Below are positions 24,217-61,500 of a DNA stretch of 64,000 nucleotides, piece by piece. The DNA is taken from positions 17,732,001 through 17,796,000 of the forward strand of contig OZ024745.1 in assembly GCA_964016885.1 (NCBI GenBank), written 5' to 3'. Position 1 is the stretch's first letter, and every line of letters begins with the position of its first letter. The DNA is from Eledone cirrhosa. Its lineage: Eukaryota. A model generated the notes under the pieces. The model saw nothing but the letters and a program-made list of their open reading frames with translations. It was not told the DNA's origin and did not search any database. Made by a program: the position numbers and the translations under genes.

Positions 24217-24412
24217 CAAATAAATATTTGCTCTACGGTTCTTATATATTTGATATATATTTTTCCTTATCGAGCCCTCTTTGGATTTTAGTCTTCAAAT
24301 TTATTATTATTACTATATATATATATATATATATATATATATATATATATATATATAAAAGACGTAAAATAAGAAAATTTTTAAAAAACTAACTTACTTA
24401 CTTAAATTTTCA

Positions 24413-24492
24413 CTCCAACTAATTAGTTTCTGCAATGGGATAAAGACAGTTATGTAATGAACTGTTGAGAATTTCATTGCGTCATCAGGGAG
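24413..24492 (-). ncRNA. Family A hammerhead ribozyme
   Basis: Reverse complement of the 25610-25689 motif. Confidence 0.8.
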
Positions 24493-24964
24493 ATCTATTC
24501 TCAGCCAAGTCTCCAGGCAATGCGCGGACACTGGGGACTCATATAAAAATAATAATAATTCGGTAAATGGAACAGCTATCGAGGACTGGGTTCCAGGCAC
24601 TGAAAATTCTCACTGCCACTGGTCATATGGCCGATTCTAAAGAATCAATCACGTGACACAGAGGCTAGTCAGTAGGAATGGGATGGTAAAATGACAGACG
24701 CCTACTAAAACCCCCAAAAAATTTAGAAGTGGTTTTAGCAGGTTTGCTCGACAAGTCAGTGATTTGGAGATAAATATAGATAATTTAATATATCTACTAA
24801 CATAAGCGCACAGATGTACGCTAATGCCAGCAAATACACAGGTTATGTCATAGTACCTAGGTGGTTCAATGCAGGAGGATGCAGAACAATAATATAAAAG
24901 ACGTAAAATAAGAAAATAAAAAAAAAAAATTAAAAAGAAATTAACTTACTTACTTAAACTTTCA

Positions 24965-25044
24965 CTCCAACTAATTAGTTTCTGCAATGGGATAAAGACA
25001 GTTACGTAATGAACTGTTGAGAATTTCATTGCGTCATCAGGGAG
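24965..25044 (-). ncRNA. Family A hammerhead ribozyme
   Basis: Reverse complement of the 25610-25689 motif. Confidence 0.8.
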
Positions 25045-25609
25045 ATCTATTCTCAACCAAGTCTCCAGGCAATGCGCGGACACTGGGGACTCATATAAAA
25101 ATAATAATAATTCGGTAAATGGAACAGCTATCGAGGACTGGGTTCCAGGCACTGAAAATTCTCACTGCCACTGGTCATATGGCCGATTCTAAAGAATCAA
25201 TCACGTGACACAGAGGCTAGTCAGTAGGAATGGGATGGTAAGATGACAGACGCCTACTAACACGCCTAAAAAATTTAGAAGTGGTTTTGGCAGGTTTGCT
25301 CGACAAATCAGTGATTTGGAGATAAATATAGATAATTTAATATATTTACTAACATAAGCGCACAGATGTACGCTAATGCCAGCAAATACACAGGTTATGT
25401 CATAGTACCTAGGTGGTTCAATGCAGGAGGATGCAGAACAATAATATAAAAGACGTAAAATAAGAAAAATTTAAAATGACCAGTGGCAGTGAGAATTTTC
25501 AGTGCCTGGAACCCAGTCCTCGATAGCTGTTCCATTTACCGAATTATTATTATTTTTATATGAGTCCCCAGTATCCGCGCATTGCCTGGAGACTTGGCTG
25601 AGAATAGAT

Positions 25610-25689
25610 CTCCCTGATGACGCAATGAAATTCTCAACAGTTCATTACGTAACTGTCTTTATCCCATTGCAGAAACTAATTAGTTGGAG
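25610..25689 (+). ncRNA. Family A hammerhead ribozyme (type I, large loop II)
   Basis: CTCC-CTGATGA-C-GCAATG..(37 nt)..CATTGC-A-GAAA-CTAATTAG-TT-GGAG. Confidence 0.82.
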
Positions 25690-56974: not shown

Positions 56975-57137
56975 GAGTAGCGAAACAATTGCAAACGGAC
57001 ATTATTACGTCCCTTTACAGTCTGAGTTCAAATCCCGCCGCGATTGACTGTGCCTTTCATCCTTACGGGGTCGATAAAATAAAGTACCAGTAATGCACTG
57101 GGTTATTGCTGGCCTTGTGCCTAAAGTAGAAACAATT
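56975..57137 (+). mobile_element. OK-like SINE (5' part degraded)
   Basis: CTGAGTTCAAATCCCGCCG...GGCCTTGTGCCTAAAGTAGAAACAAT. Confidence 0.85.
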
Positions 57138-58190
57138 ATTTTTTATCTTTTACGCTCTTTCCTACGTTCTTCTACACACTATACATCTCATTCTATATTC
57201 ACTTACATATCTCTCTTCACCACCGGATCTTGTTACCCGGAGAATTACCCATCTGCCTTGTTGAGGCTTCCAAAACGACCTAAAGAAAATATATCTTATT
57301 ATCCAACAATGCTTCAAGCAAACTTCCATACTCATTTATATATATATATATATAGAAATTGGAATAAATGCTCTGAAATAGCGATATATATGTGAATATA
57401 GACATAGAATATTCGAAAATATTCTGTATGTTTATAATAAACATTTTGAAGACCTAATCGCTATAGAATAGAATACGTCACGTATTATAATTAGATTCTC
57501 GATAAAAGCAAGGGAAGTAATCTACGCGTTTCATTCTTATTAGAAATCTTCAGGACCACATATCCAGTGCTTTTATCGAGAATGACACAGCTAGAGACTT
57601 ATAGAATACTTAGCTGTGTACAGGAACTGGTTTGAAAGAGCGGTTGCCGGTCCGGCAGAAATTAGAAATTGGAATAAATGCTCTGAAATAGCGATATATA
57701 TGTGAATATAGACATAGAATATTCGAAAATATTCTGTATGTTTATAATAAACATTTTGAAGACCTAATCGCTATAGAATAGAATACGTCACGTATTACAA
57801 TTAGATTCTCGATAAAAGCAAGGGAAGTAATCTACGCGTTTCATTCTTATTAGAAATCTTCAGGACCACATATCCAGTGCTTTTATCGAGAATGACACAA
57901 TAAGAATGAAACGCGTAGATTACTTCCCTTGCTTTTATCGAGAATCTAATTGTAATACGTGACGTATTCTATTCTATAGCGATTAGGTCTTCAAAATGTT
58001 TATTATAAACATACAGAATATTTTCGAATATTCTATGTCTATATTCACATATATATCGCTATTTCAGAGCATTTATTCCAATTTCTAATTTCTGCCGGAC
58101 CGGCAACCGCTCTTTCAAACCAGTTCCTGTACACAGCTAAGTATTCTATAAGTCTCTAGCTGTGTCATTCTCGATAAAAGCACTGGATAT

Positions 58191-58233
58191 GTGGTCCTGA
58201 AGATTTCTAATAAGAATGAAACGCGTAGATTAC
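58191..58233 (+). ncRNA. Family B minimal type I hammerhead ribozyme
   Basis: GTGGTC-CTGAAGA-T-TTCT/AATA/AGAA-T-GAAA-CGCG-TA-GATTAC; enclosed by the 16-bp helix ATTCTCGATAAAAGCA/TGCTTTTATCGAGAAT. Confidence 0.88.
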
Positions 58234-58500
58234 TTCCCTTGCTTTTATCGAGAATCTAATTGTAATACGTGACGTATTCTATTCTATAGCGATTAGGTCT
58301 TCAAAATGTTTATTATAAACATACAGAATATTTTCGAATATTCTATGTCTATATTCACATATATATCGCTATTTCAGAGCATTTATTCCAATTTCTAATT
58401 TCTGCCGGACCGGCAACCGCTCTTTCAAACCAGTTCCTGTACACAGCTAAGTATTCTATAAGTCTCTAGCTGTGTCATTCTCGATAAAAGCACTGGATAT

Positions 58501-58543
58501 GTGGTCCTGAAGATTTCTAATAAGAATGAAACGCGTAGATTAC
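58501..58543 (+). ncRNA. Family B minimal type I hammerhead ribozyme
   Basis: Identical motif 310 bp downstream. Confidence 0.88.
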
Positions 58544-61500
58544 TTCCCTTGCTTTTATCGAGAATCTAATTGTAATACGTGACGTATTCTATTCTATAGC
58601 GATTAGGTCTTCAAAATGTTTATTATAAACATACAGAATATTTTCGAATATTCTATGTCTATATTCACATATATATATATATATATATATATATATATAT
58701 ATATCCGTAAGTGTGATTGCATGTGAGTGTGTGTTTGTGCATGATATATAGATCTGTATAATATAGACAGTAAATATATACTGAAGGATTTACAATGATG
58801 GTCTTCAATTCTTAAAACAATTTGTGCCTGGTACTAATAATTATATTGTTTTTAATGTTCTATTAATATTAGAAATGCGTGCATATATGAGACATATTAG
58901 TTGTATTATGATTATTTATATTGAATATTATTTGCGAATTTATGAGTAATACAAATCGCTATAGTGTAGCAATATCTATATATTTAAAGGAATATGTGTA
59001 GAGGTATATTTTTCTTTTATGTCTTCACATATTTGATTTAATGAACATCGTTAAAAATTGATTCTCTATTCATTTTACTAATTGAAAGTGATTCTTTGTT
59101 GCGTGTATCTCTAAATTGATATATTGAATATTGCTATCTAATAGCCACTAATTAATTTCCATTGTGTTATGTCTAGTATTTCTTATTCCCAAAATTTTTT
59201 AGAATTTTGATTTCTTATTCATTAGATTTTAATTTGTGCTTCTTACACGTATGTCTAAATTGATTTTTTTTAAATAATTATAGATTTCTATCTGATATTT
59301 GTTTATTGAATGTTTCCTAACAAGAGCGATTTGGTTCTTTCTTTTCTCTTGCCAGTATATATATCTTACTTTTTCCAATAGTTTATATCAAGTTTTGTTT
59401 CATTGTAGATCAACATATGCAACATTATCCCTACCTGATTCAGATGAATTGGAGACTGTTTAGAATTGGTTGTGGGTGTCTAGTCATTTGATTATTAAAA
59501 GTGTTACCGAATTGAAAACGTCCATGTCCTCAATACAATTTGAGGGTAAAGACATGGAAAAGATTTCCGTCGAAAAATTCCCTGATGTCATATTACTTTA
59601 TGGTGGACACATTCCAGTGGGTGACATATGAGTGTAGGCCTCCACAGATGTAAAAAGCCCAACTGAATTCCAATAAAGAGTGATGTATCACACTCTAGTT
59701 GTTCGAGAATGGTGTTTTTAACTGTTCTCGACAAAGCCTCGGTTATTCTGGAAATGAGAACCTTAGGGAGATATTTTCCAGAGTTAGAAATGTTATCATT
59801 CTTTGACATGACAATGATTTTACATAGTGGAAAGGAAAGAACACATTAAAGAATTCCTACAGTAAGGAGTGAGATAGAACTACGATGAGGACAGTAAAAA
59901 CCCCGTTAAAATTTAAAGCAATATTATATCGATCATATTTCTCTCTCTGCCTTTTAAGATAAAACATGTTCATTATTGTTAATAAAACGTCTGCTCATTG
60001 CGGTTTTAAATTCCATTGATTAAACATCATTTTCGGCTCACTACACTAAGTGTCGCAGTCCTCACTTAACCATATATCATTAATTAATTATTATATTTTT
60101 GCGAGTGTGTTTGTGCAGCCGAGTACAGTTTTTATCACTTGTTAAATATCACTGGCTCCAAATAACTCATTTATCAAGCAAGAATATCTAAAAGTAATCA
60201 AATTCTCATTAGCATTGCTGATGATATGAAAGATTTCCAAATTGCCTTCGATTTCGATTTTAAAGAGACCTTTCATCATATTTGACTTGACTGAATTTCG
60301 GTAATATTTCATATATAGCTACCAACATTTCTATCATGTAGACTTGTTTAACGTCGCGATTCTTTGAAAGTAGCCATGATTCTATTATATGATTGAACTA
60401 TCCTAACTTTGATAATTTCGTGATAAATTACTTCTTTGTTTTTGTTTAATGCTTGCTATCTCAATTCCACACTTAAGTTAATTGTATCAGAAAGGTAAGT
60501 AATAATTTACTCTGAAGGATCTACTAGTGCATTGCAGTACACAAATGAACAGTTTATGTATTTGTATGCCAAAGGATGCAGATGCCTGCATTATATTGAT
60601 ATAGCAATGTATGAAATTATAGTATTATTAAGAAGTTGCCTGGTTGAATTTTATCCCTTTATTTAGCATTCCACTAATTAGTTATACCACAAAGAGATAT
60701 AGGTGATAAGCCGGACATCGACAAAGAACGGAAATACGGATGATTGATAATCGAGGTTTACAATGATGCTGAACCTTTGCGTAAAACGTTACATCAGGAA
60801 CTGCTCTACCCTGCTTTCGTAGACAGCTCTTTGCCAAACATTCTGTCATGCTGCTGTTGTTTGAGGTCTTTGCCAGCAACTGAATCCGCAGTGTAAATGG
60901 AATTAATCTGATTCTTCCAAGAGCAACATGTTAGATCGCCTATGCTTGGCAAGCGGGAGTTGACAACACGGATTGAATTATCAATTTAAAATGTGCTTTA
61001 TGAACATTGATGTGTAAACGCATTGGCTTGTGTAAACCTGAAAATATCTGTTTCAGAGATTTTATCCTTCCAAATATTTCCAAAGATATGAGAGCGTCAG
61101 CAAAGTTAGAAGGTTTCTAATATTCTGGTTTACTTCCTATAGGTCTTCCACGCTTTCCACCCATGTAAAATCAATGTGTCAGAAGGTAAAAAAACCATAG
61201 GTTTTCCTTGCTTGGTAACACTTAGGAAAAGGCGGGAAGAAATAGAATGTGATTAGCTGTGCTCTCTTTGAGCTACGTAATAGACTTGTCACAGGCAATC
61301 ACGATATTCTGTGTCACATCTCTAAGCCCCATTTAACTGTTTTCTTAAAGTATTGCATCGCTTTCAGGATGGAATACAAAACGTTAATGATAAACATGAA
61401 TATATTTGCCGATTTTCTTTATAGTAGCTAGTTCTTTACAGTACCAAAATATATGGTAACGATCGAATATGTATACGATATTGCTTAGAAGGGGATCTTT

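Follow-up and report, generated by a model that had tools for sequence, protein, structure and literature searches.

A 64,000-nucleotide stretch of the Eledone cirrhosa genome (assembly GCA_964016885.1, contig OZ024745.1, positions 17,732,001 to 17,796,000 of the forward strand; hereafter the window, whose own numbering is used throughout) carries Penelope-like elements (PLEs) and non-coding hammerhead repeats that run out into (TA)n microsatellites, and raises the question of why separate copies stop at the same two sites inside the element. An earlier note on this DNA had suggested that each cut target strand anneals on its own to a short UA-rich patch within the element RNA. Based on the ends in the window and on those of related loci, we lean towards a different reading, in which the two fixed ends are two reverse-transcription start sites, each positioned by its own conserved hairpin 3' of a short UA patch.

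Insertions of families A and B, and H2 with its solo copy, were located by self-comparison of the window with simple repeats masked, together with the raw sequence, and their ends were scored by comparing each terminus with internal copies of the same family. The two sites are referred to as proximal and distal, which in family A correspond to X and Y, respectively. The insertions and the one target duplication are as follows:

24358..26975: family A array A1; arms join near 25476 with their 3' ends outward; left end X (proximal), right end Y (distal); (TA)n on both sides.
50699..52405: family A array A2; Y on the left and X on the right, with the centre near 51152.
50681..50698, plus strand: left copy of the A2 target-site duplication, 18 bp of imperfect TA.
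52406..52423, plus strand: right copy of the A2 target-site duplication, 18 bp.
52481..53442: family A array A3; left end a variant of Y, right end X.
53486..56750, minus strand: Hydra-like PLE H2; long arm reaching the distal site at 53486, short inverted arm (56600-56750) reaching the proximal site.
40631..40898: solo terminal-repeat copy of H2, two-armed, with the same end pair as H2; hairpin at 40814-40833.
12076..15540, plus strand: Hydra-like PLE H1; long arm ending at the proximal site, inverted arm with a tail of ~96 nt; hairpin at 12133-12157, minus strand.
57355..58668: family B array of a 310-bp hammerhead monomer; left end distal, right end proximal; 37-nt tail; no Hydra-type bulged hairpin.
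2829..3060: two-armed copy of B' type; left end distal, right end proximal.
36668..37135: two-armed insertion of family G; left end proximal, 4 nt before a GCUC..UA-GAGC hairpin (37030-37059); right end distal.
23572..23803: two-armed insertion of family I; right end proximal, left end distal.
23612..23632, minus strand: family I hairpin GCUC-UGUAG/CUACA-UA-GAUC with one mismatch, 4 nt after the proximal end.
24149..24313: family C insertion, probably two-armed, with arms sharing only ~9 nt; left end proximal, right end distal; GCUC..UC-GAGC hairpin at 24230-24275.
11122..11534: two-armed insertion of family D with a tail of ~45 nt; no hammerhead or Hydra-type hairpin found.

Every insertion named in the earlier note is two-armed, with the sense 3' end of each arm facing outward into (TA)n. 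All three family A arrays end at X and Y as had been stated there (A1 X/Y, A2 Y/X, A3 Y variant/X), and H2 and its solo copy, described as copies of a Naiad-2 pseudo-long terminal repeat (pLTR), indeed use the identical end pair AATATTG/TA and CATG/TA. The proposed correspondence between the ends of B and those of the copy at 2831/3061 holds for the proximal end, which is common to both, while the distal ends lie ~6 nt apart. In line with the previous description, the ends are internal, at UA patches that match the (TA)n target, and lie downstream of the predicted hammerhead cut: in family A, the cut falls after 51757, X at ~51838 and Y at ~51959, and the arms reach upstream across the cut site. 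Reuse of two ends is ordinary by itself, as it rediscovers the known PLE tail.

Family A monomers are 91% identical between A1 and A2, 77-78% between A1 and A3, and 75% between A2 and A3, and no match was seen between the arrays in their outer flanks, indicating independent insertions. A comparison of 11 flanks revealed only that A1 is flanked on either side by a 67-bp end of another repeat family, and that two of the test windows overlap; segmental duplication of whole insertions with shared flanks, which the earlier note had itself raised, is thus not the source of the shared ends. In addition, an imperfect-TA stretch of 18 bp is duplicated around A2 and encloses both of its arms (nine other insertions tested gave only uninformative pure-TA matches), which points to a single insertion into a pre-existing (TA)n microsatellite with both target strands serving as primers. 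These observations make it extremely unlikely that the element itself produces the flanking (TA)n by telomerase-like reiteration of a UA patch, or that the shared ends stem from segmental duplication or misassembly. While PLE reverse transcriptases (RTs) are related to telomerase and the flanks are long TA runs, the imperfect duplication argues for a target that was already there, the copies differ by 9-25%, and the same end-to-hairpin rule is seen in other assemblies. Short shared sequences are present at the arm centres of A2 and H2. A2, A3 and H2 are stacked in one TA microsatellite (50600-56784) with only (TA)n between them, and this microsatellite is an insertion hotspot.

One proximal and one distal end were present in all 11 firmly scored two-armed, TA-flanked insertions (A1, A2, A3, H1, H2, the H2 solo copy, B, B', D, G, and I), with the family C insertion at 24149-24313 as a probable twelfth. 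Family E (39265-39922) and the inversions at 22599-22829 and 38277-38507, which are not TA-flanked, were left out of this count. Among families with reused sites, unlike ends were found in 7/7 insertions, for which independent choice predicts at most 1/128. The sites are therefore not freely chosen by each strand, contradicting the independent choice proposed previously. That either site can serve the long or the short arm was correctly recognised: in A1, H2, H2 solo, G, I and D it is the long arm that reaches the distal site, and in A2, A3, H1 and B the long arm ends at the proximal one. The accompanying distinction between a direct and an inverted arm does not hold, as it is not intrinsic in palindromic (TA)n. 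Measured from end to end, the tail comprises 37 nt in B, ~45 nt in D, ~68 nt in I, 91-96 nt in H1/H2 and 116-117 nt in A/G.

Element and target share 4-6 nt of TA at X and Y, 7 nt in H1, 8 nt at the proximal site of B, and 4 nt in G and D, and both edges of the duplicated A2 target match RNA patches over 4-5 nt; in family A monomers, a random junction reaches an overlap of at least 4 nt at 2.6-4.3% of positions. At the proximal site of H2 and the distal site of B, the overlap is just 2 nt, and equally long UA patches elsewhere in the same monomers are unused by these copies, indicating that, contrary to what had been assumed, a UA patch alone is not sufficient to set the site. A model in which each cut strand anneals to one or the other patch independently and nothing else determines the site accounts for overlaps of 4-8 nt at most ends and for the use of either site by long and short arms. 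In view of the consistently unlike pairs, the unused patches, the 2-nt overlaps and the fixed distance of the ends to a conserved hairpin, we consider it very unlikely. This hairpin is predicted at the following positions, listed together with the hammerhead of family A:

51688..51757, plus strand: type I hammerhead of family A, core to the predicted cut after 51757, with a palindromic stem III/loop 3.
51846..51869, plus strand: predicted bulged hairpin 1 of family A, GUUC-stem-UU-GAAC; also at 26315-26338 and 52918-52941.
51963..51987, plus strand: predicted bulged hairpin 2 of family A, UCUC-stem-UC-GAGC; also at 26432-26456 and 53034-53054.
53550..53569, minus strand: predicted hairpin of H2, ACUC-stem-UC-GAGU, 5 nt past the proximal site and 56 nt past the hammerhead cut (53626).

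A predicted bulged hairpin follows 2-7 nt downstream of both family A sites, and of the proximal site in four other families. Counted from the last target-shared base, X is located 3-5 nt before GUUC-stem-UU/UA-GAAC, and Y is located 2-3 nt before (U/A)CUC-stem-UC/UU-GAGC. The proximal ends of H1 and H2 lie 7 and 5 nt, respectively, before ACUC..GAGU, and those of G, I and C lie 2-4 nt before GCUC-led hairpins that were recognised only after the motif had been defined (I and C were read by eye). The stems in the window show two-sided changes (GUUC/GAAC and ACUC/GAGU), and a generic descriptor of the hairpin begins in any given 7-nt stretch about 1% of the time. Adjacency to the conserved hairpin predicts the end sites better than the UA patch alone. 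Short GC-closed stems follow the two B sites at a similar distance.

The PLE with these ends encodes a truncated protein:

55046..56623, minus strand: open reading frame (ORF) of H2, 525 aa, 5'-truncated; RT, CxCx5C linker and C-terminal GIY-YIG.

Translation and alignment revealed CNCRDRSKC, a GIY-YIG-type core, CDLC and CKH after the RT of H2. The H1 ORF (12813-14627) is interrupted by a stop and 52% identical to that of H2; both are 5'-truncated, and full-length homologs (34-38% identity) have RWK and DKT motifs. Two named homologs are Octopus proteins, a Pfam search gave no matches at E up to 1, and an Rfam search gave no matches. Hammerhead cuts of H2 are predicted at 53626 and 56701, with TA flanks, and a hammerhead scan of H1 found none. 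The Hydra clade of PLEs is defined by an RT followed by a C-terminal GIY-YIG, a CxCx5C linker, and CxxC and CxH motifs flanking catalytic E and N; it has RWK and DKT motifs near the N-terminus, (TA)n insertion and hammerheads, whereas in Naiad the endonuclease (EN) is N-terminal and canonical hammerheads are absent (PMC8557442). Judged from their sequence, H2 and H1 are Hydra-like PLEs and not Naiad, as H2 had been labelled in the earlier note, because the EN of H2 is C-terminal to the RT, the linker is CxCx5C, and a hammerhead is present.

Families A and B consist of non-coding tandem units of 533-568 and 310 bp, respectively, with one hammerhead each and no ORF of at least 150 aa; in family A, 11 hammerheads, one per monomer, were detected across the three arrays. 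In addition, 271 reads join the tail of the family A unit to its head, and three contig sets and one restriction-site-associated DNA (RAD) run mapped on the monomer indicate a high-copy tandem family. A pile-up of family A reads at 51948-51951 was considered as an end signal and rejected: it falls on AATT, like those at 51615 and 51703, and is probably a restriction cut of the library. Read mapping on the monomer gave no end map, and the stretch just upstream of X was skipped as repeat. By their unit structure in the DNA, families A and B are non-coding hammerhead arrays of the retrozyme kind, and they likely borrow their enzyme from Hydra-like PLEs.

Most complete leaders of loci related to H2 carry the hairpin twice. 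The best 80 of 221 metagenome loci encoding relatives of the H2 ORF were analysed, and the motif GCTC-N5-20-TH-GAGC-ACT was located between the hammerhead cut and the ATG. In its strict form, it gave 80 matches on the sense strand, 5 on the antisense strand and 0-3 in each of 10 shuffles. Of the 18 leaders that are complete from hammerhead to ORF, 16 have the motif twice, once at +40 to +54 and again at +104 to +125 relative to the cut, with 59-74 nt between the hairpins; the two exceptional leaders are an ACTC variant and a compound locus. The pattern left the inner bases free, and the first inner pair is Watson-Crick in 61/61 distinct motifs (38 C-G, 23 U-A), compared to a mean of 32 and a maximum of 47 upon shuffling, and to 25/129 in motif matches from unrelated viral contigs. 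Matches of a loose twin-motif pattern in these contigs, in which no Hydra-like ORF was found, were mostly unpaired, treated as chance, and used as a control only. The third inner pair is Watson-Crick in 24/28, the second more weakly so (35/59). As MAFFT misaligned the 61 mixed-length hairpins, two length classes of 29 and 15 sequences were modelled. The 15-sequence class shows 100% pairing over seven pairs with two-sided changes at three. Three further-pair columns have two-sided changes and a covariation score that 0/500 shuffles reached.

The hairpins in the relatives also mark most of the mapped ends. A hairpin begins within 1-6 nt after 14 of the 19 mappable ends (hairpin 1 in 4 cases, hairpin 2 in 10). 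These 19 are distinct ends mapped on a same-family reference and curated by hand, after manual removal of ORF-internal divergences between families, continuing elements, a contig end, two inner ends of inverted arms and one duplicate. Among published consensuses inspected by eye, Hydra-1_Ajap has both hairpins at its start and stops just short of the first, Hydra-2_Amil and Hydra-2_Ajap have single hairpin copies and end after hairpin 1, and Hydra-1_Crog has a GCCC/GGGC variant; at the start of Hydra-1_Obim, the motif was not recognised by eye. Three related loci (L002:2259-2732, L003:1665-2523, and L001:2462-2762) have 3' ends inside the ORF or the hammerhead, representing either exceptions to the hairpin rule or later rearrangements.

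TA is found at -10 to -4 before the motif in 59/61 cases, compared to a local background of 40%, and is in register, with peaks at -8 and -6. This bears on an alternative that we judge unlikely, in which the hairpins serve as a ruler and pairing with the target is unneeded, the UA patches being relics of earlier (TA)n junctions or unstructured linkers. Such a non-homologous initiation has been measured for a Poseidon PLE (PMC11167929), two window sites overlap their target by only 2 nt, and several ends in the relatives adjoin flanks other than long (TA)n. In contrast, the register of TA at -8 to -5 before both hairpins is kept across diverged families, and the 4-5 nt matches at both ends of the duplicated A2 target argue for pairing. 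A further alternative, which we hold to be quite improbable, is that the hairpins are read in DNA, either complementary DNA (cDNA) or donor, by the GIY-YIG EN, which would trim a longer intermediate at two points. In this case, the tail would result from EN-mediated resolution, to which it has been ascribed (PMC8557442); the tail of Drosophila Penelope was reported to be necessary for EN recognition (as cited in PMC11167929), and the stem pairs are mostly Watson-Crick, so that RNA and DNA hairpins cannot be told apart. However, in the Poseidon assay RT starts on the RNA at the positions of both genomic ends (PMC11167929), and at the end that it marks the hairpin is not part of the insert, as expected of a loading site 3' of the start.

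Several observations weigh against two RT start sites positioned by hairpins. In the Poseidon assay, the start site was equal between strands and not homologous to the target (PMC11167929). B, B' and D have unlike ends, and a check of all three did not find the bulged hairpin form. The hairpins in the window are not unusually stable (z -1.4 to +0.9), hairpin 2 of A1 and A2 is not part of the minimum-energy fold, and one of the window hairpin descriptors had been tuned on window variants. Covariance models built from the relatives only matched the window hairpins at E 0.4-7, among unrelated matches, and missed most family A copies. Of the 19 ends in the relatives, 5 lie 27-86 nt from a hairpin, and no related locus displayed both ends of one insertion, so that unlike pairing is based on the window data. 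Moreover, the relatives are related short-read contigs, in which 23 leaders fall into 13 clusters at 80%, and the counts are not independent.

The known structure of PLE insertions is an inverted 5'-truncated copy with a tail of 30-40 bp at either end, often at one only, and rotifer Penelopes have a target duplication of 8-10 bp around the whole unit (PMC8557442, PMC3846280). The insertions in the window resemble this pattern in their partial tandems, inverted truncated copy, one-end extension at either end, and target duplication; of their tails, which range from 37-45 nt in B and D to 116-117 nt in A/G, only that of B is within the published range. The passages on the tail in these papers mention no end-setting RNA element and propose EN resolution or self-priming (PMC8557442, PMC3846280). 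Likewise, the main text on the Hydra clade does not use the words hairpin or stem-loop, yet the twin hairpin is visible in its consensus files (PMC8557442).

For the Poseidon element PAc of Anolis, reverse transcription by the purified protein begins at two internal sites corresponding to genomic ends, and both target strands are extended; hammerhead cleavage is unneeded, RNA 3' of the starts is required, and a dimer is predicted (PMC11167929). The window and PAc have in common two internal starts downstream of the hammerhead. PAc differs in that its start lies in an AC-rich stem loop, inside the ORF, and is not homologous to the target, whereas the UA patches described here match (TA)n over 2-8 nt. 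Furthermore, starts of the window type are located upstream of the ATG in full-length relatives and are each followed by a repeated bulged hairpin. The motif suggests that priming in this telomerase-related RT clade uses short RNA-DNA pairing, unlike in Poseidon. In L1 twin priming, both target strands prime on the element RNA, giving a centrally joined inversion, and the second primer is used at variable internal sites with little overlap between arms. In contrast, both starts are fixed in the window insertions, and the arms duplicate the same sequence.

Animal non-LTR (long terminal repeat) retrozymes are non-coding tandems with one type I hammerhead per unit and have been proposed to be mobilised by PLEs (PMC7229834; bioRxiv 10.64898/2026.07.22.740005). 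These papers argue from co-occurrence and similarity, whereas the window arrays themselves bear the marks of PLE insertion, with an inverted arm, two ends and a target duplication, and the family A arrays have hairpin-like elements at both ends. The twin hairpin would connect animal retrozymes mechanistically to a specific PLE clade.

If the two ends are start sites positioned by hairpins, a two-subunit RT/EN complex would bind hairpins 1 and 2, folded at the RNA level, of a transcript that the hammerhead has left uncut, and would nick both (TA)n strands at positions staggered by up to ~18 nt. The 3' ends released in this way would each anneal over 2-8 nt to the UA patch 5' of one hairpin, and both cDNAs would be extended toward the 5' end of the RNA, with overlapping sequence or consecutive tandem units as template. 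These cDNAs would stop at different lengths and be joined centrally, resulting in an inverted insertion with its 3' ends out and with one proximal and one distal end, the difference between them being the 'tail'. Family A would be mobilised in trans by Hydra proteins. More tentatively, Hydra-clade PLEs and their parasitic retrozymes may carry a bipartite RNA signal, in which two tandem modules of UA patch and bulged hairpin load two RTs per transcript, with the two strands of a staggered (TA)n cut priming at one module each. If true, programmed double priming alone would account for the defining features of PLE insertions, namely inverted pLTR, one-sided tail and target duplication. How inverted one-tailed PLE insertions are made and how microsatellites are targeted has been stated as an open problem.

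The hairpin cis-element has probably not been described before: our literature searches, which barely covered older Penelope papers, figures and supplements, turned up no account of PLE start sites with a repeated hairpin or with TA pairing. The in vitro Poseidon study left the RNA signal undefined, and a motif of ~25 nt that is repeated twice at a fixed distance from the ends offers exact mutations. It also provides an annotation rule for the boundaries of Hydra elements.

Further repeats in the window relate to the families described above. Family C copies (22044-22829, 27030-27752, 6850-7011, and 49182-49261) have a hammerhead-like core of CAGAAGA or AAGAAGA, not CUGAnGA. One 3' end is common to most of them, and the copy at 22044 has a 5' inversion with partial duplication and no TA there. 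Family E (39265-39922, 41311-41434, and 49273-49911) is an older, rearranged hammerhead repeat with internal inverted and tandem pieces and a cut predicted at 39463 on the minus strand. Single hammerheads are present at 15673-15843 (cut at 15792, plus strand) and 44283-44340 (cut at 44305, minus strand), each followed by a TA run within ~20-50 nt. A third B-like end with a perfect GCTAT/ATAGC stem (38756-38900) terminates near the distal B site. At 37306-37680, three tandem 46-bp units, which share sequence with the left flank of family G, alternate with TA/TG runs, and two ends ...CACGCTTGATAG face each other across a single TA run.

The remaining features are of other kinds. Translations revealed a frameshifted non-LTR retrotransposon with endonuclease and RT segments at 3170-6643 (minus strand) and a second RT-like ORF fragment at 47202-48584 (plus strand). 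An interspersed repeat of ~200 bp, which presumably resembles a short interspersed element (SINE), is found at 8524-8713, 17623-17819, 31946-32134, 35602-36194 (where it is tandem), and 57005-57143. Finally, a direct repeat of 342 bp at 28157-29031 is 97% identical between its copies.

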